The position numbers were made by a program, and so were the translations under genes. This document shows, in pieces, positions 1,009 to 13,613 of a stretch of 13,613 nucleotides of DNA; the stretch's first letter is position 1; every line of letters begins with the position of its first letter. The notes under the pieces are model-generated. The model was not told where the DNA came from and did not search any database. It saw only the letters and a list, made by a program, of their open reading frames with translations. This stretch comes from a virus. Lineage: Duplodnaviria > Heunggongvirae > Uroviricota > Caudoviricetes. The DNA lies in IMG/VR virus record IMGVR_UViG_2778261693_000009. The stretch is one strand, 5' to 3'.

Positions 1009-1081
1009 GTCCTCTTAGTTAAATGGATATAACGAGCCCCTCCTAAGGGCTAATTGCAGGTTCGATTCCTGCAGGGGACAC
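1009..1081 (+). tRNA. argW: tRNA-Arg, anticodon CCU (argW-type); 3' CCA not fully encoded
   Basis: Cloverleaf folded by hand: acceptor stem 1009..1015 pairs with 1073..1079 (one G-U pair); D-stem 1018..1021 with 1030..1033; anticodon stem 1035..1039 with 1047..1051; anticodon loop 1040..1046 (CTCCTAA, anticodon CCT at 1042..1044); T-stem 1056..1060 with 1068..1072; T-loop TTCGATT. Discriminator A at 1080 is followed by C-T-T rather than C-C-A. Confidence 0.9.
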
Positions 1082-1107
1082 TTTAAAGACCTTTCTCTAC
1101 ATTTCAC

Positions 1108-1187
1108 TTCATTACATAACCACTTAAAAAACAGTAAGTTATCACCGAATCGGCCTGATTTTCATTTCAGTTAATTTCATGACATTA
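1108..1187 (+). promoter_or_regulatory. int upstream region carrying two sequence boxes that recur upstream of alpA (candidate shared regulator or Int arm-type sites)
   Basis: Box 1 TTCATTACATAAC at 1108..1120 is identical to 3528..3540. Box 2 TAATTTCATGACATTA at 1172..1187 is identical to 3549..3564 (19 of 20 matches when the preceding cag is included). Confidence 0.4.
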
Positions 1188-1266
1188 CAACCTCGTGATG
1201 GTATAAGTGATGGTATTCCCCAGTTCGATATGCAGATACCATCAATTTACCAAAATGAGTACAGAT

Positions 1267-2541
1267 ATGGCCATTAATGTGCTTTCCCCCAAACAGATAG
1301 AAAACGCCAAGCCGAAGACCAATGATTACAAACTTACCGATGGAGGGAGTTTGTATCTACTGGTACGAAAGACTGGTGGAAAATACTGGCGTATGAATTA
1401 TCGTTTTGATGGAAAACAAGTGACATTGGCATTAGGGGTCTACCCAGATGTCTCACTTGCAACAGCGCGGAAACGGCGTGATGAAGCCAGGCAACTACTA
1501 GCCGATGGTCGTGATCCTCGCGAAGCAAAGAAACCCAAAAAGGAAGACCCAATTTCCCCCACGTTCGAGAGTGTTGCCAGAGAGTGGCATAGTGGAACGA
1601 TGGGGCATCCTGAGTGGAAAGAGATCACCCGTAAAAAAATTCTCCGAGAAATGGAAAACCACCTCTTTCCTGCCATCGGTTCAAAGCCTATCGATACGCT
1701 CAAAACCCGTGACTTGATGCCGATGCTGGTTGAGATGACTGAGAAAGGAATTGGTGCCACAACGAGCCGGGTAAAAACCACTATGACGAGCATCTTCCGT
1801 TATGCCGTGCAACGTGGAATTGTCGATTACAACCCTGCCCACGATCTAAAAGGTGCAATTACGACCCCCAAAGTACGACATCGCCCCGCACTACCTCTCG
1901 AACGTTTACCTGAACTGTTAGCGAAAACGAGAAGTTACACGGGAAGACCATTGACTCGCCTAGCAGTTCTATTTTCCCTGCACACTTTTGTGCGATCCAG
2001 CGAACTACGACATGCCAGATGGGAGGAGATCGACATTGAAAATGGGCTATGGACGATACCAGGACAACGTGAAGAGATCGCAGGGGTTAAATTCTCAGAG
2101 CGGGGTGCAAAGATGGGGGCTGCTCATTATGTCCCGCTATCTAGTCAGGCTATCGGGGTACTGGAGGATATAAGGAAAATCAGTGGTGAATATCTGCTGG
2201 TTTTCCCCGGTGACAGCAACCCATATAAACCGATGAGCGAAAACACAGTTAATAAAGCACTGCGAACGATGGGTTACGACACTCAAAGTGATGTTTGCTT
2301 GCATGGGTTCAGGGCGATGGCCTGCTCTGCACTGACCGAATCAGGACTCTGGTCACGCGATGCAGTTGAACGGCAGATGAGTCACCAAGAAAGAAACGAA
2401 GTGCGGGCAGCATATGTGCATCTTGCGCAGCACATGCAGGAACGCCGCAGAATGATGCAATGGTGGTCTAATTATCTGGAACTAAATAAGGACGAATTTC
2501 ATGCTCCTTATGACTTATCAGGTATTAACATTATCAATTAA
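1267..2541 (+). CDS. P4-type site-specific tyrosine integrase (N-terminal Arm-type DNA-binding domain plus C-terminal catalytic domain)
   Basis: Lies immediately downstream of the tRNA. N-terminus MAINVLSPKQIENAKP...DGGSLYLLVRKTGGKYWRMNYRFDGKQVTLALGVYPDVSLATARKRRDEAR is typical of P4-like integrase arm-binding domains. C-terminal region contains HGFRAMA and RAAYVH (candidate catalytic His/Arg/Tyr) and the tail RRRMMQWW seen in argW-targeting IntS-like integrases. Start is ambiguous: in-frame ATGs at 1207, 1255 and 1267, none with a strong SD. Confidence 0.85.
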   Translation: MAINVLSPKQIENAKPKTNDYKLTDGGSLYLLVRKTGGKYWRMNYRFDGKQVTLALGVYPDVSLATARKRRDEARQLLADGRDPREAKKPKKEDPISPTFESVAREWHSGTMGHPEWKEITRKKILREMENHLFPAIGSKPIDTLKTRDLMPMLVEMTEKGIGATTSRVKTTMTSIFRYAVQRGIVDYNPAHDLKGAITTPKVRHRPALPLERLPELLAKTRSYTGRPLTRLAVLFSLHTFVRSSELRHARWEEIDIENGLWTIPGQREEIAGVKFSERGAKMGAAHYVPLSSQAIGVLEDIRKISGEYLLVFPGDSNPYKPMSENTVNKALRTMGYDTQSDVCLHGFRAMACSALTESGLWSRDAVERQMSHQERNEVRAAYVHLAQHMQERRRMMQWWSNYLELNKDEFHAPYDLSGINIIN

Positions 2542-2571: not shown

Positions 2572-3453
2572 ATGCAGCATTCAAAAGAGAATGAAACTAT
2601 ATTCTTAGGAAATCTATGGATTGACAAAAAAATACCACCATTAGAATATTGTTCATTTGAACGCGCTTCAAGACTATTAGAATGCGAGATTGATGATTTA
2701 TTACACCTATACGAAATAGGCGCTTTTAATATCGCATTCAAGGCGGATGGACTTGCAGTTAGATTTAATGTTAATTTCCTCTATAAAAATCAGAAAATGG
2801 AAATTGACTTAATTCATCCCGTATTAACTAATCAATCACTAGAGATGGAATTTTCAACAATATGGTATGACCTTAAAGATGACTCCTTTGAACATTTTGA
2901 AAATGGGCTTCAAATTATAGGATTTGCCTGTGGTATTTGGTACGCCGATGATATGATAAGTGACATAAAAAATGGATTAGCTATAGATCCAGATTATGAA
3001 TTCAGGCTTAAACCGGTAAAAATACGAGATAATGTTTTGATGGCAACGGCCTCATATGAAGGAAATAAGGTCATTGATATTCCATTTGAAGATCTTCTTA
3101 TCATGCGAAGAGATTTAGAGTTAATATGGAAATCAGTAAAAACTGGAATTCCTATGCCAAGTTTACTTACGAAAAGAATTTCATCTGAACCTAAAATCCC
3201 CAAGCGATTAAATAACACTGCTGAGCATCATGCAAAAAATAGGGAGGGGTTATTAAATGCAGCCATATATATATTAGCAAAATACCCAAGCGAATGTCGT
3301 GGTGAAAGAAAAGAGATAAGTCCTGAAAAGTGGACTAACGCCATAATTAAACATTTAGGAGAGCTACCTCCAATATTTATCACTAATGAACAAGAAATCT
3401 TAAGAAAATTACGATTAGCGGTTAATCATGCGGGATTAAAACAAAAGGGGTAG
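2572..3453 (+). CDS. Hypothetical protein, 293 aa; AT-rich orphan cargo gene directly downstream of int
   Basis: Clean ORF with SD AGAGG 5 nt upstream of the ATG, 30 bp after the int stop. Markedly AT-rich by eye (roughly low-30s percent GC versus over 50 percent in the flanking core genes). No motif I recognise (no P-loop, no obvious nuclease or HTH signature, no hydrophobic segments). Confidence 0.7.
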   Translation: MQHSKENETIFLGNLWIDKKIPPLEYCSFERASRLLECEIDDLLHLYEIGAFNIAFKADGLAVRFNVNFLYKNQKMEIDLIHPVLTNQSLEMEFSTIWYDLKDDSFEHFENGLQIIGFACGIWYADDMISDIKNGLAIDPDYEFRLKPVKIRDNVLMATASYEGNKVIDIPFEDLLIMRRDLELIWKSVKTGIPMPSLLTKRISSEPKIPKRLNNTAEHHAKNREGLLNAAIYILAKYPSECRGERKEISPEKWTNAIIKHLGELPPIFITNEQEILRKLRLAVNHAGLKQKG

Positions 3454-3555: not shown

Positions 3556-3771
3556 ATGACATTAAAAACTTATCCTATCACTGGACATGCCCGCCCACGA
3601 GCTACTGCTGACTTTTTGCAAATAAGTACGGTTACTCTCTGGCGCTGGGAAAAGAACAATCCTGAATTTCCCAAATCTATACGCATTTCAAAACGGGTAT
3701 CTGTTTACGATGCACAAGAAATTAGGCAGTGGGTTAAAGCTCAATCAGCAGGATTGGAGGAAGTAGTGTAA
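3556..3771 (+). CDS. alpA: AlpA-family (prophage CP4-57 regulator-like) small DNA-binding regulator/excisionase-type protein
   Basis: 71-aa protein containing FLQISTVTLWRWEKNNPEFPKSIRISKRVSVYDAQEIRQWV, which fits the AlpA/Xis-type winged-helix pattern. Located between int and the replication module as in P4-like elements. Confidence 0.75.
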   Translation: MTLKTYPITGHARPRATADFLQISTVTLWRWEKNNPEFPKSIRISKRVSVYDAQEIRQWVKAQSAGLEEVV

Positions 3772-4691: not shown

Positions 4692-4976
4692 ATGAATATT
4701 TCAAACGGGCACAACGGTGCTCAGGGCCAGACTTTGCCTGAAAAACACAATACCGGTGCTTTTGCCTATGGGTTGTCAGAGGACGGTTTCGGAAAGCTGA
4801 CCCGCGCAAGAAATGCCTGCGACATGCTCCAGCTTCTCTTTTCTGAATACCCGTCTCAGGCCGGAGCACTGGACGCAGGCTGTGCGCCTGGTGTCGCCGC
4901 GCTGATGGAGTACCTGCGGGCAGATTTGACGGATATTGCACACAGCTGCGCACTGATTGAAGGAGGTGCCAGATGA
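4692..4976 (+). CDS. Hypothetical protein (94 aa), satellite early operon
   Basis: ATG at 4692 with SD-like ACGGAG upstream; its stop overlaps the next start (ATGA). Identity unknown. Confidence 0.5.
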   Translation: MNISNGHNGAQGQTLPEKHNTGAFAYGLSEDGFGKLTRARNACDMLQLLFSEYPSQAGALDAGCAPGVAALMEYLRADLTDIAHSCALIEGGAR

Positions 4977-5356
4977 ACCAGCCGCAGGTTTCCATTTTCC
5001 CGGCAGAAATGACCACCGCGCTTTACCGGCGGGCTATTGCTTCAGCATGGCGGCAGAAAATGCTGAACGAAACTGGCAATGATCAGTATGGTCCGCACAG
5101 CCTGACGGTGGAGCGTATTGAAATGGCCATTGCGCTGCATATCGAGTGCGCACTGATTAACGAGTACGGCGAAGCACAGGGCGCCGCTGCCGCGCTGGCA
5201 CTGCTGACTGACATGCTGGAGCCGTCACTGCTGACCGCGCCGCCGGTACTGACCGCGCGCGGTTGTGAAGTAATGGCGGAGATGTACCGCACGCTTCCGG
5301 CGGCCTTTGATGTCTGCTGCAGTACCGGTGTGACGTTGTATCAGGGGGAAGTATGA
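4973..5356 (+). CDS. Hypothetical protein (127 aa), translationally coupled to the primase gene
   Basis: ATG at 4973 with SD GGAGG; its stop overlaps the primase start (ATGA at 5353..5356). Confidence 0.5.
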   Translation: MNQPQVSIFPAEMTTALYRRAIASAWRQKMLNETGNDQYGPHSLTVERIEMAIALHIECALINEYGEAQGAAAALALLTDMLEPSLLTAPPVLTARGCEVMAEMYRTLPAAFDVCCSTGVTLYQGEV

Positions 5357-8025
5357 CAATACAGACGGTTACGCAGATTTCAGCCGCCGCGCGGGGGAAA
5401 TGGCCCGTTATTCTGCAGATGCTGCGTATTGATGTACCTGAAAACGGCAGGCACGGTCCCTGCCCGAAATGTGGGGGCAAGGATCGTTTTCGCCTTGATG
5501 ACCTTGACGGGCGCGGGACGTGGATCTGCAGCCAGTGTGGCAATGGTGACGGTCTGGATCTGGTTAAGCTCGTAACCGGTTACAGCGTCAGAAAGGCTGC
5601 GCAGGAGGTGGCGCAGGTGCTTAATGTGCCGGATGTGCAGGAACTGCCTGTTAAGCCTGCCAGACAAAAAGCCCCTAAACGCGACATGGGTCTTACCGTG
5701 GCGGCGCTGATGAAAGAGAGCCACACGGGAGAAAGCGCCTATCTGACAGGAAAAGGGTTCGCCGGATACCCGGCCTCTCTGACCGGAAGCGTGCAGCATA
5801 TCAGCGGTAAGGATTTTCCTGCCGGTTCCCTGCTGTTACCACTCACGACCAACACCGGAGCCGTGACCGGTGCACAGCTTATCGCCCCGACGGGTGAAAA
5901 AAGCATACTGCCCGGCAGCACGATGAAAGGCGCGTTTGTGTCGCTCAGCCCGTTACCGTCTGAACCACCGGTACAGGTGGTGATTACCGAAGGTTACGCT
6001 ACGGCGCTGACGGTAAGCCAGCTCACTGCCGGATGCGTAGTGGCTGCCATATCTGCGGGCAACCTGCCCAATGTGGCGCAGTCGCTGCGGGCACGCTGGC
6101 CTGAGGTAAAAATTATCATCGCCGGTGATAACGATTTTCAGGATGGGGGGGAGAATCCCGGCAGAGCCTTTGCTGAACGGGCGGCAAAAGTTGTTGGCGG
6201 CTGGATGACGCTGCCACCAGGAGAGATTAAGGCTGACTGGAATGACTTTCATCGGGAGCACGGTATTACCCGTGCCCGTGAAGCCTTTCGCAACGGTCTG
6301 GTACTGTGCGGGGAAGGCCGCACGCAACTGCCGCACGGGTTCCGTCTTACCCAGGAATATCTCTGGTATGAAAAGCAGGTACAGCGCAACGGTGAGACGG
6401 AGATCCAGAACGTCAAAATATGCAGCCCGCTGCGCGTGACGGCAATCACCTGCGATGCCGATGGCGGTAACTTCGGACGACTGCTGGAATGGGAAGATAC
6501 GTGGGGTGAGCGTCGCCGCTGGGCGATGCCGATGGAAATGCTGAGCGGCAGTGGTGAGGAACTGCGCCGGGTACTGCTGGTTAACGGGCTGTCTTATATC
6601 AGCACTACCGGTGAGGCACGCGCACGCCTGATGGAATATATCTCACTGTGTAAACCGGAACGCCGCGTGACCTGCGTCAGCCGTACTGGCTGGCATGGTC
6701 AGGTTTACGTCCTGCAGGATGAGGTCAGCGGTGAAGGTGCAGAGGGTGTCATTCTCCAGACCACTTCCGTGCAGGGGCGTGATTTCCGCGTGTCGGGCAC
6801 AACAGAGGAATGGCGGGAGAACGTATCCCGCTACTGTACCGGCAACTCTCGCGTGGCATTTGCTGTCAGCCTGGCCTTTGCTGCACCACTGTTACGGCTG
6901 GTTGGTATGGACGGCGGCGGCTACCACCTCAAAGGGGAATCGACAGACGGTAAGACCACCACCATGAAAGCGGCAACCTCCGTCTGCGGCGGGCCTGACT
7001 ACTGGCAGACATGGCGGGCCACCGGCAACGCGCTGGAGGGATGCGCCAGCCGCCGCAACGATGCCGCCATGATGCTTGATGAGATCCGGGAAGTTGACGG
7101 ACGCGAGGCAGGCAATATCGCCTACATGCTGGCAAACGGTCAGGGCAAGGGCCGTGCCGGTACGGACGGTGAGCTGCGTACCCGTAAGCAGTGGCGCCTG
7201 TTGTTCTTTTCAACTGGCGAGTTGTCTCTGACCGAACATGCGGCAAAGGCCGGTGAGCGTACTTTTGCCGGGATGGAAGTCAGGATGATCCAGATCCCCA
7301 GCGATTCCGGGAAATTTGGCGTTTTTGAGGAGCTGCACGGCTTCGACAGCGGCAAGGCTCTGGCAGAGCATCTTGAATGGGCCACGTCCTGCTACTACGG
7401 TTCGCCGTTCCGGGAGTGGCTAAAAGCACTGACCGCTGATCTTAACGGACTAACGGCACAGGCAAAATCGCTGATGAAGGAATATGCTGCCGCCCTGACT
7501 CCGAAAGATGCAGGCAACCAGGTGGGCCGGGCTGTGAATCGCTTTGCACTGGTGGCGATGGCGGGTGAACTGGCAACCCGTCTGGGTATCACCGGCTGGC
7601 CTGAGGGTGAAGCACTGCGGGCAACCCGCGTCTGCCTGAACGCATGGCTGAAAGATCGCGGGCACACCGCCAATCAGGAAGATATTGCCGCACTGGAGCA
7701 GGTTCGCAGTTTCTTTACCGCGAATCAGTACAGCCGCTTTGCAGACTGGTATGACGAGCGCAACCGCCCCGGCAATATGGTGGGCTGGCGCAGGGTGGAG
7801 AAAGGCAGTACCGCGCAGGGCACGGAAGCTGTCACTACGTTCTATGTCATGCCGTCCGGCTGGAAAGAAATCTGCAGGGGATTTGACCCGCGCAAGGTGG
7901 CGCGTCTGTGCGCAGATCGTGGATACCTGCTGCCCTCCACTGATGGCAAACTCCAGACAACCATTCGCCCGCCAGAGATGAATCCCCGCAGGCTCTATGT
8001 CTTCAACAGCGAGGTGCCGGGTTAA
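5353..8025 (+). CDS. P4 alpha-like bifunctional DNA primase-helicase (zinc ribbon, TOPRIM, D5/SF3-type P-loop NTPase)
   Basis: 890-aa ORF with SD GGGGGAAG. Zinc ribbon C37-P-K-C40 ... C59-S-Q-C62. TOPRIM-like ITEGY (nt about 5984..6001) and AGDNDF (nt about 6121..6138). Walker A GESTDGKT (nt about 6934..6960) and Walker B MMLDEI (nt about 7066..7083). Confidence 0.9.
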   Translation: MTIQTVTQISAAARGKWPVILQMLRIDVPENGRHGPCPKCGGKDRFRLDDLDGRGTWICSQCGNGDGLDLVKLVTGYSVRKAAQEVAQVLNVPDVQELPVKPARQKAPKRDMGLTVAALMKESHTGESAYLTGKGFAGYPASLTGSVQHISGKDFPAGSLLLPLTTNTGAVTGAQLIAPTGEKSILPGSTMKGAFVSLSPLPSEPPVQVVITEGYATALTVSQLTAGCVVAAISAGNLPNVAQSLRARWPEVKIIIAGDNDFQDGGENPGRAFAERAAKVVGGWMTLPPGEIKADWNDFHREHGITRAREAFRNGLVLCGEGRTQLPHGFRLTQEYLWYEKQVQRNGETEIQNVKICSPLRVTAITCDADGGNFGRLLEWEDTWGERRRWAMPMEMLSGSGEELRRVLLVNGLSYISTTGEARARLMEYISLCKPERRVTCVSRTGWHGQVYVLQDEVSGEGAEGVILQTTSVQGRDFRVSGTTEEWRENVSRYCTGNSRVAFAVSLAFAAPLLRLVGMDGGGYHLKGESTDGKTTTMKAATSVCGGPDYWQTWRATGNALEGCASRRNDAAMMLDEIREVDGREAGNIAYMLANGQGKGRAGTDGELRTRKQWRLLFFSTGELSLTEHAAKAGERTFAGMEVRMIQIPSDSGKFGVFEELHGFDSGKALAEHLEWATSCYYGSPFREWLKALTADLNGLTAQAKSLMKEYAAALTPKDAGNQVGRAVNRFALVAMAGELATRLGITGWPEGEALRATRVCLNAWLKDRGHTANQEDIAALEQVRSFFTANQYSRFADWYDERNRPGNMVGWRRVEKGSTAQGTEAVTTFYVMPSGWKEICRGFDPRKVARLCADRGYLLPSTDGKLQTTIRPPEMNPRRLYVFNSEVPG

Positions 8026-8052: not shown

Positions 8053-8247
8053 GGTAACAGGTGAAACAGGTGAAACAACCGTATTTTACAGGGCTGAACC
8101 TGTTCCACCTTCTGAAATAGTGAGGTGGAACAGATGTAACGCCAGCCAATCCGCTGTTCCACCTTGTTACCCGCGATGTTCCACCGGTGCAGTGTATATA
8201 AGTGCTTTATAAAACAAAGCTGTAACACATGTTTCACCTGTTCCACC
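8053..8247. repeat. Iteron cluster; candidate replication origin (P4 ori/crr-like) bound by the alpha protein
   Basis: Nine-mer TGTT(C/T)CACC in both orientations: GGTGAAACA at 8060..8068 and 8069..8077 (tandem, period 9, preceded by degenerate GGTAACA); TGTTCCACC at 8101..8109, 8155..8163, 8177..8185, 8239..8247; inverse GGTGGAACA at 8124..8132; TGTTTCACC at 8230..8238. An AT-rich stretch at 8191..8226 lies between clusters. Non-coding and immediately downstream of the primase-helicase gene. Confidence 0.7.
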
Positions 8248-8335: not shown

Positions 8336-8391
8336 TGTGCCAGCCACCACACACTGAGTACCGATAGTGTGCTTGTGTCAGCCACGACACA
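8336..8391 (+). promoter_or_regulatory. Candidate Ogr/Delta-dependent late promoter (two TGT-N12-ACA dyads) upstream of the sid-like gene
   Basis: TGT(8336..8338)-N12-ACA(8351..8353) and TGT(8374..8376)-N12-ACA(8389..8391), both within 90 bp upstream of the ATG at 8426. The first dyad sits about 55 bp upstream of a plausible transcription start. Confidence 0.35.
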
Positions 8392-8425: not shown

Positions 8426-9169
8426 ATGAACAACACCGCAGTGAATAACAACCTTTCCACTTTTCCGGCTGTAACGCAGCGGGCACTGGAAACCATGAAC
8501 ACAGCCAGAAACGCATGGCTTGAAGCACGTCGTCAGCAGAAAGCGGCAGCGGATAATATTGCGACAATCCGCCAGCGTCGCGCTGAGATGGAAGCCACGA
8601 CGAACACACTGAATGAGGAGTGGCGCACGCTGTTTCGTGAAAGTCAGGGCGTGGTTTCAAAGGAAATGAAAAAACTGCGCACGGAAATTGCGCTGGGACG
8701 AGAAACGCTTGAGGATTTTGATGAGCTGCTGGCGGCTCAGGAAAGCGAAAATGCACTTTTGCCGCAGAAAGCTGCGGAATTAGCCGGAAAGTATATCCAC
8801 GCGCATAACATTCTTGTGGATATTCGCGCAAAACAAATCTGGGAAGATTTTATGCAATCGCATGGAAAAGCGCTTATTCAGACGCTGAGCCTGCTTAAAT
8901 CCACAATGGGCCGGGAAGCCAGTGCCGTTGTGGGTGTGGTGAATTCAGTTAATGACCCGGACACAGTGCTGAAAGACTTTATTCATAAACATATCACCAG
9001 ACCGGCTCTGGCTAACGATGCGATGCCTGAACAGGACCCGGTGTTTAAACTGGCGGGAATTGCCCCGGATTATGCGGCGCGTCTGGATTTCAGTAATCAA
9101 CTCTCTCCGGCAGCTATGCATAAAATTAAGGTTCGTCAGGAACTTGCTGAGAAGGAGAAAGCAGTATGA
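8426..9169 (+). CDS. Sid-like protein (candidate capsid size-determination scaffold); assignment by size, position and predicted helical character
   Basis: 247 aa (P4 Sid is about 244 aa). SD AGGAG at 8416..8420. Charged, helix-prone sequence rich in A/E/R/K/Q. First gene of a three-gene operon ending in an Ogr/Delta-like gene. Confidence 0.4.
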   Translation: MNNTAVNNNLSTFPAVTQRALETMNTARNAWLEARRQQKAAADNIATIRQRRAEMEATTNTLNEEWRTLFRESQGVVSKEMKKLRTEIALGRETLEDFDELLAAQESENALLPQKAAELAGKYIHAHNILVDIRAKQIWEDFMQSHGKALIQTLSLLKSTMGREASAVVGVVNSVNDPDTVLKDFIHKHITRPALANDAMPEQDPVFKLAGIAPDYAARLDFSNQLSPAAMHKIKVRQELAEKEKAV

Positions 9170-9717
9170 CGGCCCGAGGCACGCCTGACCAGGCACTTAC
9201 CAGTTTTCGGAATGCCCGTATTCTGTGGGCCGGACATAGTGAGAGCCGAAAAGCCGTTGAACAACAGATAGCATCTCTCCTCGCTGCCACAGAAAAACCA
9301 GCAGATTATGCCCGACAGCTCGAATTACTGCGGGAACGTCTGGATGTGCTGAAATGGCAAATTAACTGTGCTGCGCGCGAATGCATTTACTCGCAGCATT
9401 TACTGATGGAAGCCTGCACAGAAGCCGCTCTCAGCAATTTTATGCAGGCGAATGGGGCAGCCCTGACATCTGCACTGGCTCCGTTCCTGAAGGGGCGCGG
9501 GGGGGTTGACGTTGCGTCCCGTATATTACGCAGTGCTCTGGTTCGCCAGCTGACAATAACACCGCCTGAAATTGCCGGGGATTATCGTGAGATCCTGGAT
9601 GAATCCGGTTTGATGCCTGACCCCGGGATGATTCGTGATTGCCAGGGCTCTTACACCCCGGCACAACATCTGCGTTTTCAGCAACGCCTGAATGACATTA
9701 ACGATATACAGGAGTGA
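9166..9717 (+). CDS. Psu-like protein (polarity suppression / capsid decoration family); from size and remembered motifs
   Basis: 183 aa (P4 Psu is about 190 aa). Start overlaps the upstream stop (ATGA). Contains KWQINCAARECIY and FMQANGAALTSALAP, which resemble my recollection of P4 Psu. Shares the local motif FMQxxGxAL with the upstream 247-aa protein. Confidence 0.45.
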   Translation: MTARGTPDQALTSFRNARILWAGHSESRKAVEQQIASLLAATEKPADYARQLELLRERLDVLKWQINCAARECIYSQHLLMEACTEAALSNFMQANGAALTSALAPFLKGRGGVDVASRILRSALVRQLTITPPEIAGDYREILDESGLMPDPGMIRDCQGSYTPAQHLRFQQRLNDINDIQE

Positions 9718-9792
9718 TATTAATGGCACTTAAATGTCCGGAATGCGGTACAGTTGCACACGCCAGAACAGCAGCCTATGAAGCTCCGTCAG

Positions 9793-9796
9793 TTAA
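9793..9796. repeat. IS5 target-site duplication, left copy (TTAA)
   Basis: TTAA immediately precedes the left IS5 inverted repeat. Confidence 0.8.
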
Positions 9797-10991
<1,195 letters not shown>

Positions 10992-10995
10992 TTAA
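10992..10995. repeat. IS5 target-site duplication, right copy (TTAA)
   Basis: TTAA immediately follows the right IS5 inverted repeat. Confidence 0.8.
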
Positions 10996-11214
10996 ACGCT
11001 CGTGGTATCAGTGCCAGAATCTGGAATGTTCCTGCACATTTACGGCACTGGAGAGTGTGGATAAGATAATCATGAAACCCCGACGCAATGAACAGCTATC
11101 AGACAAAGCACAATCCCCGGAAAAACAACAGCAAACACTTAATCGCTATGGCTCCGCGTCAAAACTTTCAAGCCGTCAGCAGATTCCTGTCTGATTAGAA
11201 AGAACGCCCACGTA

Positions 11215-11240
11215 ATCCCGGTCCAGTACCGGGATTTTTT
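11215..11240 (+). terminator. Rho-independent terminator closing the late operon
   Basis: ATCCCGG (11215..11221) / CCGGGAT (11229..11235) 7-bp stem with a 7-nt loop, followed by a T-run (11235..11240). About 20 bp after the Ogr/Delta-like stop. Confidence 0.7.
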
Positions 11241-11402
11241 ATCCCCTTTTCCTGGCTGGCATGAGAGCGAATGAGTGCATGTCTATGGCGCATGAAAACG
11301 CATGAGTCTTATGCACCATTTTTGACGAGAAAACCCTTGTTTGGTGGCTTCTGAGACGATTTATGAGGTGCATGAAAACCAGTCTGTTAAGCGAAGCGGG
11401 CA

Positions 11403-11421
11403 GGCGTGCGGGGCTGCGCAC
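11403..11421. other. Candidate degenerate cos-like sequence (P2/P4-type cohesive end); low confidence
   Basis: GGCGTGCGGGGCTGCGCAC loosely resembles the P2/P4 19-nt cohesive end GGCGAGGCGGGGAAAGCAC as I remember it (about 12 of 19 ungapped). It sits between the late operon and the AT-rich cargo, where cos lies in P4. Confidence 0.2.
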
Positions 11422-11621
11422 GGAGGCGGAATAAATAGTAATGCTATGGATGCTGGGCACACATAGATAAGAGGTTTACAAATAGTATGCTTGTTGTCGT
11501 AACTGATAGGGGTCTATCAAAATCAGAAATCAAAAACAGTATTTCGTGTAATTTATAGAATTTTCACAGAAAACATATACAATCGTTTCTGATACAGGAG
11601 TCTGATTAAGTTGGGATTATT

Positions 11622-13613
11622 ATGGCCATTCAAAAAAAACAAACAAAAAATTCTGAAAGAAGTATTAAAAGCCAGTTAGAAAAACTTACGGCTGAAAAAG
11701 CCATTTCCGAATATATTTGGAATGCTTTTGATGCTGAAGCCACAAATATTAATATTACAGTTATCCCAAATGGTTTAAGTGGGATATCTTCAATAGAAAT
11801 TATTGATGATGGAACTGGCATCGATTTTAATGAAGTCGATGAAACTTTCGGGCAGTTTTTAGATTCCAAGAAGAAAGCAAAACGAACGCCTGTCACAAGA
11901 GGACATAAAGGTAAGGGGCGGTTTTCATTCTGTAAATTCGCTGATAAAGCCGAATGGACTAGCTGGCGTAATGGAGAGAAATTTACGCTAACTATAGTTT
12001 CATCACATCTAAATGAATATGAGCATTCAGATTTATCCATGTGCTCTCATAAAAATTCTGGAACTAAGGTGGTCTTTAATCCTGTAACAATTACTGAAGA
12101 TTATTTTAATTCAATAGTTATACCCTATTTGCAGAACGATATATCTTGGCTGTTGGTGGCCAAACCAAAATTAAAATTAAAAATAAACGGTCAATCTATT
12201 AGCCCAATAGGATATGCTTCAACTTCAAATAATATTGAATTTGGAGAGGTCGATTTTAATTCAAAAACAGTTATATGGTCTAGTAAACCTGTAGTAGAAA
12301 AATCATATATATATTATTTAAATAATCAAGGTGATATTGTTTACAAAGAGTTTTCTGAGATGAACAAAAAAGGATTTGATTGTTCATCCTATGTCACATC
12401 AAGTTGGTTTGATGATTTTTCTGAATCAAACGACTTGTTTAATGAATCGAAAAACAGTGTTGACTCAGATATTTTTAAATACATTAGCCTACATGTTAAA
12501 GGTAATTTAAGGGAAGAGTATAGAAAATATAAAAATAATGCAGCAGATCAACTCATTCAAAACTATTTAAATGAGGGTGTGTTTCCAGAATATAAAGGTG
12601 AGAATAGAATGCTCAATGAATTTAAAAGGAATCAACTCATTGAAACTATAAAGATAATTTATGAGGCCGAACCTCAAATTTTCTCCACACTAAACAAGAA
12701 ACAAAAAAAAATCTTAATTAAACTATTAGATAGAATTGTTGAAACCAATAATTTATCCAGTCTCTTTGACATTTTTGAAGGTATAGTTTCCCTATCCGAA
12801 GATGAGGTTGATAAACTTTCATCTGTAATAAAAAGAAGTTCACTTTCTAATATTACGAGGACTTTGTCATTTATTAATGATAGACTGGATGTTATTGATT
12901 ATTTTAAAAAAATACTATATGAGAAAAAGAAAGAATCATATGAAGTAAAGCACATTCAAAAGAGCATAGAAAATAATTTATGGCTTTTTGGAGAGCAATA
13001 CACTCTAGTTGCATCAGAAGATGATAAGTTTGATAAAGCTCTTAGAAAGTATCTGGAGAAGACTAAAGGTTTTAACGAAGCACATTATAATAAGTATAGT
13101 GTACAGCATCCAGATAAAAATAAAGAAATGGATATATTTGCAGCACAAAAAATAAAGCGTTACACTGAAAATAATGAAGAATATTTTCATTGCATTGTGA
13201 TTGAATTAAAGAAACCAAGTATAAAACTCGGTGATGAAGAACTCGCACAAATAAAGTTATATAAAAATATAATATCTGCGACTGATGAATTTAAAGACGA
13301 TAATACAAAATGGGATTTTATTTTAGTGGGAAATGATATATCTAATAGCAATATCACTGCTGCAAATTTATCATCAGATCTAGAAACGAATAAAATACAT
13401 GGTGAGTTTGGCTTGGTTCAAAAAACAACAAATATGAAAATTTACGTCAAAACGTGGAAGCAAATTTTAAATGAGTATGATCTTAGATATAACGACCTGA
13501 TCGATAAGCTTAAGTTGAAAGAGTTAGAAATTGCAGAAGATATGGGGCCTGATGAACTCACGGCAAAAATTTTAGAAAAAACGGCAAGACTTCCGACTTC
13601 GATACAGGCTTAG
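11622..13613 (+). CDS. GHKL-family (Bergerat-fold) ATPase with a C-terminal PD-(D/E)xK-like putative nuclease region; AT-rich cargo gene and candidate anti-phage factor
   Basis: 663-aa complete ORF whose stop codon is the last three bases of the window. Weak SD GGGA 5 nt upstream. N-terminal motifs: E30-x3-N34-x2-D37-A38 (EYIWNAFDA), D62-D-G64-T-G66 (G1 box), G94-x2-G97-x-G99-R-F (G2-like). C-terminal motifs: D504 (EMDIF) ... E528-L-K530 (IVIELKK) ... Q543. Very AT-rich by eye (about 30 percent GC), unlike the satellite core. Confidence 0.75.
   Translation: MAIQKKQTKNSERSIKSQLEKLTAEKAISEYIWNAFDAEATNINITVIPNGLSGISSIEIIDDGTGIDFNEVDETFGQFLDSKKKAKRTPVTRGHKGKGRFSFCKFADKAEWTSWRNGEKFTLTIVSSHLNEYEHSDLSMCSHKNSGTKVVFNPVTITEDYFNSIVIPYLQNDISWLLVAKPKLKLKINGQSISPIGYASTSNNIEFGEVDFNSKTVIWSSKPVVEKSYIYYLNNQGDIVYKEFSEMNKKGFDCSSYVTSSWFDDFSESNDLFNESKNSVDSDIFKYISLHVKGNLREEYRKYKNNAADQLIQNYLNEGVFPEYKGENRMLNEFKRNQLIETIKIIYEAEPQIFSTLNKKQKKILIKLLDRIVETNNLSSLFDIFEGIVSLSEDEVDKLSSVIKRSSLSNITRTLSFINDRLDVIDYFKKILYEKKKESYEVKHIQKSIENNLWLFGEQYTLVASEDDKFDKALRKYLEKTKGFNEAHYNKYSVQHPDKNKEMDIFAAQKIKRYTENNEEYFHCIVIELKKPSIKLGDEELAQIKLYKNIISATDEFKDDNTKWDFILVGNDISNSNITAANLSSDLETNKIHGEFGLVQKTTNMKIYVKTWKQILNEYDLRYNDLIDKLKLKELEIAEDMGPDELTAKILEKTARLPTSIQA

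Follow-up and report, generated by a model that had tools for sequence, protein, structure and literature searches.

Organization of the element

The 13,613-nucleotide stretch of DNA analyzed here (the window) carries a late operon for helper exploitation, which belongs to a P4-like phage satellite integrated at the E. coli tRNA-Arg(CCU) gene. The attachment end (1009..2541, + strand) comprises the tRNA gene itself (1009-1081) and the gene for a P4-family tyrosine integrase (1207-2541), and is followed on the same strand by genes for an alpA-type regulator (3556..3771; Pfam Phage_AlpA, E 1.6e-7) and a replication protein (5353..8025), in which a Zn-ribbon and Toprim primase is fused to a DUF927 domain. 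The N-terminal primase domain of this protein is 38% identical to residues 4-311 of P4 alpha, but DUF927 takes the place of the D5_N/DUF5906/Pox_D5 helicase.

Membership among P4-like satellites was judged by the scheme of Moura de Sousa & Rocha 2021 (PMC8628076), which has seven core components; of these, integrase, alpA, sid, psu and delta are present and clustered, with delta split by an IS5 element. For epsilon, neither a Derepression nor a Phage_ASH match was found in any ORF from alpA to the primase gene; an element lacking both epsilon and alpha is "Type C#01" in the same scheme. Since there is no epsilon and no P4-type alpha helicase, the life cycle may differ from that of P4. The window has no helper capsid gene. 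With PADLOC, the cargo gene for a GHKL ATPase matched REase_II only weakly, and orf293 matched nothing.

The late operon and its signals

An ori-like iteron field (8056..8247, assigned to neither strand) separates the primase gene from the late promoter; in it a repeat search found about nine copies of GGTG[A/G]AACA / TGTT[C/T]CACC in both orientations. The type-1 repeats of P4 ori (GGTGAACA/TGTTCACC) are likewise located just upstream of sid. The Psid-like late promoter region (8336..8391, + strand) consists of two TGT-N12-ACA dyads (8336-8353 and 8374-8391), 38 bp apart, and the proximal dyad begins 52 nt before the ATG of the sid-like gene. The geometry is that of P4 Psid, with dyads at 9493-9510 and 9531-9548 that are also 38 bp apart and 52 nt before the sid ATG, and the same dyad pair occurs 50-53 nt before sid in five relatives (loci L004, L010, L011, L013 and L014). 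No sigma-70-like promoter was found in the region.

Downstream of the promoter, all on the + strand, are the sid-like gene (8426..9169; 247 aa), a homologue of the external scaffold that determines capsid size, the psu-like gene (9166..9717; 183 aa), a homologue of the polarity suppression and capsid decoration protein, and the two parts of delta. The sid-like and psu-like ORFs overlap by ATGA. The operon ends at an intrinsic-terminator-like hairpin with a T run (11214..11236, + strand; 9 pairs, 5 of them G-C, tail TTTTATCCCC). Beyond it is a cos-like site, GGCGTGCGGGGCTGCGCAC (11403..11421, + strand), with a conserved upstream flank, AAGCGGGCA; it matches P4 cos (GGCGAGGCGGGGAAAGCAC) at 12 of 19 positions, is conserved in loci L002-L008, and marks the point at which the sequence common to the relatives stops.

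The gene order reported in the earlier note (sid-like, psu-like, delta-like, unlike that of P4) is confirmed, the P4 genes being located at 9583-10317 (sid), 10314-10814 (delta) and 10888-11460 (psu). The psu-like gene thus follows sid immediately, whereas P4 psu follows delta. This is a known minority arrangement among P4-like elements, in that psu and delta are swapped in 20% of complete (Type A) sets (Moura de Sousa & Rocha 2021, PMC8628076). Among the related loci that have psu, sid and psu are adjacent in 10 of 10.

The Sid-like protein

Sequence and predicted fold identify the 247-aa protein as a homologue of Sid. In a profile search its residues 11-246 match PHROG 6165 (E 8.4e-93), the same PHROG to which P4 Sid belongs (E 6e-116), and the two proteins are of one length class (247 and 244 aa). 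It matches PDB 7jw1_E by phmmer (E 4.4e-10), and P4 Sid by BLASTP at 24% identity (E 7e-13). The AF2 monomer model (pLDDT 87.5) has helices at 15-72, 79-109, 112-169, 178-196, 205-210 and 228-246, and 7jw1_E is its best Foldseek match (TM 0.74/0.78, 235 columns); the predicted monomer shows the elements of the Sid fold, namely the long two-helix coiled-coil stem, the helices that in Sid dimerize through a knot, the linker and the C-terminal helix. As in P4, the gene is the first after the two-dyad late promoter. A tblastn search of 50,697 phage records gave no match at E 1e-5 and did not recover P4, because P4 Sid is too distant for this method; it was recovered with phmmer against the PDB and with the PHROG profiles. 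NCBIfam contains no models for the pair, nor for P4 Sid or P4 Psu.

For the contacts with the capsid protein gpN, we considered the P4 Sid positions in the alpha3-alpha4 loop (161, 163-165) and in alpha6 (219-224). The Sid-like residues S227-P-A-A-M-H232 align with P4 Sid T219-P-A-Q-R-K224, so that the [ST]-P-A opening of the C-terminal helix is retained; within the Sid-like family P228 is invariant, and S227 and A229 are conserved at 90% or more. In the loop, which reads T-x-G-H-Q in P4 Sid and V-x-G-V-V here, G170 corresponds to G163 of P4 Sid and is invariant. The remaining gpN-contact positions differ.

A departure from P4 Sid is that the Sid-like protein retains the Psu-type F-M-x3-G-x2-L motif, which P4 Sid does not have. 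Within the family F142 and L150 are invariant, as is W31 near the N-terminus, and M143 and G147 are conserved at 90% or more. The aligned partner of G147 is Cys140, which in P4 Sid lies on the two-fold axis of the dimer (PMC7552001, section 3.3, where the roles of the Sid contact residues are also given) and forms a disulfide. When 71 sequences of the Sid/Psu superfamily are placed in a neighbour-joining tree with Psu as the root, Sid separates into two sister clades, one retaining and one lacking the motif; the method is weak at such divergence, and the tree is silent on ancestral gene order. The Sid-like protein falls in the motif-retaining clade (approximately 15 clusters at 50% identity), which is sister to the clade of P4 Sid. 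We found no description in the literature of the Psu-type motif in a Sid lineage.

The Psu-like protein

The 183-aa protein is, on comparable sequence and model evidence, a bona fide Psu homologue. It matches Pfam PF07455 (Psu) over positions 2-180 of 182 (E 1.3e-44; 152.3 bits, with a cut-off of 27.4), PHROG 6366 over its full length (E 3.8e-70), PDB 3rx6 (E 1.3e-13), and P4 Psu by BLASTP (E 4e-15, 29% identity). The AF2 model (pLDDT 88.2) superposes on 3rx6 with TM 0.86/0.84 and an rmsd of 2.2 Å over 183 columns (Foldseek). Features shared with P4 Psu include FMQxxGxAL, W20/W21, R52/R56, W60/W64 and the P-A-Q motif that contacts Rho, and F92, M93, G97, L100 and W21 are invariant within the Psu-like family. 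The protein differs from P4 Psu in length (183 vs 190 aa), having a 9-residue deletion past the dimerization region.

The residues of P4 Psu that contact Rho are D49, E56, P171, A172, Q173, M175, R179, K180 and Q183 (PMC11718236), and most are kept. In P4 Psu numbering, P171, A172 and Q173 are identical, four positions are changed conservatively (D49 to E, E56 to D, M175 to L and K180 to R), and two are altered (R179 to Q and Q183 to D). A scan of genome contigs with the Psu-like alignment returned only seven loci, the back-translated patterns being narrow.

Relationship between the two neighbours

The earlier note had drawn attention to two elements common to these neighbours and had suggested that they are paralogues, a suggestion to be checked by pairwise and profile alignment and by structure prediction. 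Both elements are present: the motif occurs as DFMQSHGKAL (residues 141-150) in the 247-aa protein and NFMQANGAAL (residues 91-100) in the 183-aa protein, and the similar N-terminal pattern as TARNAWLEA (26-34) and NARILWAGH (16-24), respectively. Paralogy is upheld at all three levels. By BLASTP the two proteins align over 121 aa with 22% identity (E 2e-4), and their Smith-Waterman score of 55 lies 4.5 standard deviations above the shuffled mean (31.9, sd 5.1), being reached by 1 of 1000 shuffles. In the profile alignment (hhalign; probability 83.5%, E 8.3e-6, 167 columns), residues 21-243 of the Sid-like protein align with 8-177 of the Psu-like protein, a span that includes both the N-terminal pattern and FMxxxGxxL. 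The predicted structures match Sid (7jw1) and Psu (3rx6), respectively, and for both models the two P4 structures are the sole Foldseek matches at E <= 1e-3. Thus the pair appears, from sequence and models together, to consist of ancient paralogues with a single fold, to which Sid adds about 55 stem residues. For the P4 proteins themselves, experimental structures show one fold for Sid and Psu, and their origin by duplication has been proposed (Kizziah 2020, PMC7552001); the P4 pair compared by BLASTP gives E 29.

The two genes have no significant similarity as DNA (the best match is 19 nt at 84%, E 0.17), and the duplication is therefore ancient, rather than a recent tandem event. Recent gene conversion between the neighbours is ruled out by the same result, and is further contradicted by the motif of the Sid-like protein, which is nearer to that of P4 Psu than to that of its own neighbour. 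Both genes are under purifying selection, with dN/dS values relative to EDL933 of 0.22 (sid-like) and 0.39 (psu-like).

Delta and the IS5 insertion

The gene for the Ogr/Delta zinc-finger activator is present in two parts. The 5' part (9723..9796, + strand) corresponds to Pfam Ogr_Delta positions 1-23, and the 3' part (10996..11194, + strand) to positions 19-47 (E 3.2e-8). Between them lies an IS5 element of 1195 bp (9797..10991, - strand) with terminal inverted repeats GGAAGGTGCGAATAAG, a TTAA target duplication (9793-9796 and 10992-10995) and a transposase ORF (9943-10959, - strand) that matches annotated IS5 family transposase. Removal of IS5 joins 9723-9796 to 10996-11194 and yields a 90-aa protein with the C-x2-C-x22-C-x4-C zinc finger of P4 Delta and P2 Ogr (PF04606), equal in length to the intact delta of locus L002 (strain 504211). 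It is 45% identical to P4 Delta residues 2-45 and shares with P4 Delta and P2 Ogr the TGT-N12-ACA target dyads, but is a single 90-aa domain where P4 Delta has two domains in 166 aa. In the window as it stands, the two Cys pairs lie 1.2 kb apart in separate ORFs with IS5 between them, and so do not form a zinc finger within one polypeptide.

None of 5426 complete E. coli genomes has the IS5::delta junction, and the insertion is therefore a recent private event, of which we found no description in the literature. With delta split, the satellite cycle in this copy is probably crippled, and transactivation of the helper by the satellite has probably been lost.

Related elements and distribution

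The sid-psu-delta block occurs in 643 of the 5426 complete E. coli genomes. The element at 306-326 kb of E. coli O157:H7 EDL933 has a late cassette of sid, psu, short delta and cos, the DNA of which is 92% identical to the window from 8513 to 11421, i.e., from inside sid to cos. In EDL933, as in the Pantoea, Mixta and Scandinavium loci, the cassette is found on a P4-type backbone (P4-like alpha, a divergent early operon and an integrase beyond the hotspot), whereas in the window it is found on a co-directional backbone of int, alpA, DUF5375 and DUF927 primase, without epsilon. We found no description of one late cassette on two replication backbones, nor of the co-directional int-alpA-DUF927 primase backbone without epsilon, and a full-text literature search yielded no paper that mentions both DUF927 and P4-like.

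Alternative readings

The 247-aa protein might instead be another member of the Psu type, serving to inhibit Rho or to decorate the capsid, and the locus would then encode two Psu paralogues. It passes the Pfam gathering threshold for Psu (37.7 bits vs 27.4), matches P4 Psu directly (pairwise BLASTP, E 3e-6), keeps the Psu-type motif missing from P4 Sid, and is often named "phage polarity suppression protein" in RefSeq, where it is also labelled "septation initiation protein" or "hypothetical protein". However, its full-length match to the Sid PHROG (6165, E 8e-93) is far stronger than that to the Psu PHROG (6366, E 2e-9), and the long stem of Sid is present in its model, for which TM is 0.74-0.78 to 7JW1, compared with 0.45-0.58 to the Psu structure. 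The gene is also in the sid position, right after a Psid-type promoter and next to a genuine psu, and the alignment retains only three of the seven C-terminal Rho-contact positions (P, A, and K changed to R). We therefore consider a second Psu improbable. Still less credible, to the point that we give it almost no weight, is a chance or compositional likeness of two alpha-helical coiled-coil proteins of separate descent. Both proteins are helical and such proteins are prone to spurious matches, the BLASTP value is modest at 22% identity, and the hhalign probability is below 95%; but the alignment is collinear across nearly the full length of each protein and keeps three motifs, each conserved in its own right, in register, the observed score is rarely reached by shuffling, neither model matches anything besides the two P4 structures at E <= 1e-3, and P4 Sid and Psu have a common fold in their solved structures (PMC7552001).

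A different question is whether the late module here is a decaying relic, with no satellite cycle and with the sid-like and psu-like genes intact merely through the recency of the insertion. This we regard as somewhat short of an even chance. IS5 breaks the Delta zinc finger between its two Cys pairs, its junction is private, and P4-like sets hardly ever lack delta, which is regarded as essential (PMC8628076). On the other side, the sid-like and psu-like proteins are 100% identical to those of locus L002, which has an intact delta, and the Psid dyads, terminator and cos of the IS5 copy are all intact. The Ogr of a P2-like helper could, moreover, switch on the late operon in place of satellite Delta.

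Proposed function

We place the probability of a P4-like late operon, encoding Sid and Psu homologues that are ancient paralogues with a role in helper exploitation, at roughly 85%. Homology, fold, promoter geometry, the cos site, purifying selection and distribution rest on the data described here; capsid size redirection (a P2-like helper capsid going from T=7 to T=4), Rho inhibition and activation by Ogr/Delta are roles that we infer. The suggestion in the earlier note that the satellite redirects helper capsid assembly much as P4 does remains the best inference, given the Sid fold and family, the genuine Psu, the Psid-type promoter and cos.

In the proposed sequence of events, the Ogr of an active P2-like helper, or satellite Delta, would bind both TGT-N12-ACA dyads (8336-8391) and switch on the sid-like gene, the psu-like gene and delta. 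The Sid homologue would dimerize via a knot that starts at the F-M-x3-G-x2-L motif, with its long coiled-coil stem contacting neighbouring dimers and the helix from S227-P228-A229 binding hexamers of the helper capsid protein, and would thereby force the formation of a small capsid that fits the satellite alone. Once the capsid has matured, the Psu homologue would take over from Sid and decorate it; the Psu homologue would also inhibit Rho by means of its C-terminal helix, T164-P165-A166-Q167.

Several features of the locus count against the P4-like reading overall. Identity is low (24% to P4 Sid and 29% to P4 Psu), the gpN contacts of Sid are kept in part, delta is inactivated by IS5, and there is no epsilon or P4-type alpha helicase.

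Significance

That an E. coli satellite has adjacent Sid and Psu genes is correct but ordinary, because the shared ancestry of Sid and Psu (PMC7552001) and the psu/delta order (PMC8628076) have both been published. Stated in that form the finding adds little, as hundreds of E. coli genomes contain the block in annotated form.

The late cassette on two backbones, joined to them within sid at one end and at cos at the other, is an example of modular satellite evolution. As a tentative and rather doubtful extension, window 8513-11421 might act as a self-contained unit for "capsid piracy", carried by recombination from one integrative replicon to another, unrelated one (P4 alpha/epsilon and DUF927), its psu-adjacent, motif-bearing Sid representing the ancestral tandem-duplicate state, and the sid-delta-psu order and motif-less Sid of P4 being derived. 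A DUF927-primase backbone without epsilon would escape, or rank low under, marker sets based on P4 alpha and epsilon. This Sid lineage links Sid and Psu by plain BLAST, which the pair of P4 itself does not, and is therefore useful as an intermediate sequence for annotation.

Adjacent genes for Sid and Psu homologues

The two ORFs occupy 8426-9169 (247 aa) and 9166-9717 (183 aa), both on the + strand and overlapping by ATGA, and both products contain the motifs on which the earlier note had remarked when it called them Sid-like and Psu-like. Both labels are borne out. The longer protein is a homologue of Sid. Like P4 Sid (E 6e-116), it falls in PHROG 6165 (E 8.4e-93), and it matches P4 Sid itself, both as chain E of PDB 7JW1 (E 4.4e-10) and by BLASTP (24% identity, E 7e-13). 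Its AlphaFold model (pLDDT 87.5) agrees, with Sid as the top structural match (TM 0.74/0.78, 235 columns), Psu as the second (TM 0.45/0.58), and nothing significant beyond these two in the structural search. The shorter protein is a Psu homologue, matching Pfam Psu (152 bits), PHROG 6366 (E 3.8e-70) and PDB 3RX6 (E 1.3e-13), on which its model superposes with a TM of 0.86 and an rmsd of 2.2 Å; of nine residues published as Rho contacts, seven are either unchanged or conservatively substituted. NCBIfam holds no model for Sid or Psu, and the RefSeq names of the 247-aa protein (e.g., WP_032198685.1) vary among “septation initiation protein”, “phage polarity suppression protein”, “phage capsid morphogenesis protein” and “hypothetical protein”. 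The first of these is, at a guess, a mistaken expansion of the abbreviation Sid.

Kinship of the two proteins

The proteins are also similar to each other. BLASTP gives an E-value of 2e-4 (22% identity across 121 residues), and the Smith-Waterman score of 55 compares with 31.9 ± 5.1 for shuffled sequences, only 1 of 1000 of which reached it. When the aligned Sid-like family (23 relatives) is compared by hhalign with the aligned Psu-like family (15 relatives), the two match over 167 columns (E 8.3e-6, probability 83.5%), spanning nearly the whole length of both, with about 55 additional residues in the longer protein. The genes have no detectable similarity at the DNA level, and for this reason a recent duplication or gene conversion is rejected; the paralogy proposed in the earlier note holds, and it is ancient.

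P4 Sid and P4 Psu have no detectable BLASTP similarity (E 29). Since the window's Sid-like protein matches both of these (P4 Psu at E 3e-6) as well as its own neighbour, it acts as an intermediate sequence between Sid and Psu. The shared motif is conserved on both sides: F142 and L150 are invariant and M143 and G147 at least 90% conserved among Sid-like proteins, and F92, M93, G97 and L100 are invariant among Psu-like proteins. The tryptophan of the N-terminal pattern (W31 in Sid-like, W21 in Psu-like) is conserved in each family, and a third common motif, [ST]-P-A, lies at the start of the C-terminal helix in both proteins. Mapped onto the published P4 structures, F-M-x3-G-x2-L falls where the coiled-coil stem meets the knot-like region of dimerisation, and G147 of the Sid-like protein aligns with Sid Cys140, which lies on the two-fold axis of the dimer (PMC7552001, section 3.3). 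The C-terminal helix of Sid (T219-K224) touches the helper capsid protein at its sir loop (PMC7552001), and that of Psu (P171, A172, Q173) touches Rho (PMC11718236).

Searched with a profile, 1.84 billion representative proteins yielded only 89 clusters. About 15 full-length clusters, the window lineage among them, keep the Psu-type motif and match a Psu HMM (E 1e-3 to 1e-12); another 40 or so, with P4 Sid among them, have neither the motif nor a match to that HMM. These groups form two sister clades in a rough NJ tree, and so the tree does not settle the ancestral gene order. Two Pantoea MAG loci carry a third Sid/Psu paralogue of 270 aa directly 3′ of delta (L004, 10843-11655; L007, 10828-11646), for which no published description was found. 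It matches the Sid-like family by hhalign (probability 99.6%, E 1e-23), has about 50 additional N-terminal residues and keeps an F-F-M-x2-G-x2-L motif, and is without the C-terminal [ST]-P-A helix, which is the capsid-protein contact in P4 Sid.

Gene order and late operon

Gene order differs from that of P4, as the earlier note had claimed: P4 has sid-delta-psu, whereas the window has sid-psu-delta. Of 5426 complete E. coli genomes, 643 have the latter block and 1072 the P4-type block. Among the related loci examined (E. coli, Shigella, Pantoea, Mixta, Scandinavium, Serratia and metagenomes), sid and psu are adjacent in every one that has psu. In a Kosakonia locus (L010, 8001-9049) with a P4-type backbone and a Phage_ASH gene, a frameshifted delta comes right after the sid-like gene, and there is no psu. 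Relative to the copy in E. coli O157:H7 EDL933, dN/dS is 0.22 for the sid-like and 0.39 for the psu-like gene, values that indicate purifying selection on both.

Upstream of the sid-like gene there is no sigma-70-like promoter. Two TGT-N12-ACA dyads (8336-8353 and 8374-8391) lie there, 38 bp apart, the proximal one beginning 52 nt before the ATG. The same pair is found in P4, with equal spacing and at an equal distance from sid, and it lies 50-53 nt before sid in five relatives. In P4, Psid has two binding sites for Delta. The late promoters of P2 that depend on Ogr have TGT-N12-ACA as their consensus (PMC3931495). Just upstream, at 8056-8247, is a dense field of 9-bp iterons in both orientations (GGTG[A/G]AACA / TGTT[C/T]CACC), probably a replication origin. 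The iterons resemble the P4 ori type-1 repeat GGTGAACA with one additional base, and the P4 repeats likewise precede sid, in the same place relative to its promoter.

The window's delta encodes a single Ogr-type domain and is interrupted, between the two Cys pairs of the zinc finger, by a complete 1195-bp IS5 (9797-10991) flanked by the target duplication TTAA (9793-9796 and 10992-10995). A search of 5426 complete E. coli genomes found this junction in none of them, so the insertion looks like a recent private event. It probably disables the satellite's late activator, leaving this copy crippled. A 99.8% identical copy in strain 504211, at the same tRNA, has an intact 90-aa delta and other cargo. 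Downstream of delta are a terminator with a 9-bp stem (11214-11236) and a cos-like site (11403-11421) that agrees with P4 cos at 12 of 19 positions and has a conserved flank. Its core in E. coli and Shigella copies, GGCG[T/G]GCGGGG, has one G fewer than P4; that of Pantoea and Mixta, GGCGTGGCGGGG, has one G more than the E. coli and Shigella copies.

One late cassette on two backbones

The window is a chromosomal segment of E. coli, and the element's genes are all on the + strand. Beyond a yfdC-like transporter (1-933) and tRNA-Arg(CCU) (1009-1081) lie a P4-family tyrosine integrase (1207-2541), a 293-aa ORF (2572-3453), alpA (3556-3771), small ORFs including DUF5375 (4973-5356) and an 890-aa Zn-ribbon/Toprim/DUF927 primase (5353-8025). 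The GHKL-type ATPase gene just after cos (11622-13613; product >663 aa, running off the window end) has an HSDR_N_2-like region and, as its sole PADLOC match, a weak REase_II; it lies at the position of the known P4 defence hotspot, and the genes after cos differ among close relatives. Like this gene, the 293-aa ORF between integrase and alpA is low in GC (28-35%); it has no family match, and its position is possibly a second cargo site.

The late cassette (sid, psu, delta, terminator and cos) follows a DUF927 primase, as here, in 325 complete genomes. A similar number (O157:H7, O55:H7 and others) carry it on the classical P4 backbone, which has P4-type alpha and a divergent early operon and whose integrase lies beyond the hotspot. 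The two settings are homologous in DNA from 8513 to 11421; one breakpoint falls 88 nt into sid and the other where cos ends. The EDL933 cassette (L014, 9001-10812) is 92% identical in DNA to this segment, and its backbone is of the classical P4 type, not the DUF927-primase type.

Compared with P4, the window backbone is without epsilon and without the P4 helicase domains. Its replication protein shares with P4 alpha only the Zn-ribbon and Toprim primase domain (38% identity, P4 alpha residues 4-311), and DUF927 replaces the D5_N/DUF5906/Pox_D5 helicase; by its domain composition it is a chimera relative to P4 alpha. No paper was found in which DUF927 and P4-like elements are mentioned together. 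With marker sets that rely on P4 alpha and epsilon, such an element would be scored as incomplete.

Relation to published work

Kizziah et al. (2020; PMC7552001) described the common Sid/Psu fold (17% identity, HHpred E 9e-35) and proposed duplication followed by divergence; Moura de Sousa and Rocha (2021; PMC8628076) placed Sid and Psu together in one tree; and Gjorgjevikj et al. (2025; PMC11718236) described Sid as distantly paralogous to Psu and noted short Delta homologues. Among complete P4-like sets 77% have the P4 order, and the commonest exception (20%) is the psu/delta swap (PMC8628076). Sid/Psu paralogy and the sid-psu-delta order are therefore correct and already known, as both points are published. 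The overall interpretation of the earlier note is likewise supported. Judged from homology, fold and context, the two genes would serve Sid-type capsid size redirection and Psu-type decoration and Rho inhibition, and we consider it very likely (probability about 0.85) that this is what they are.
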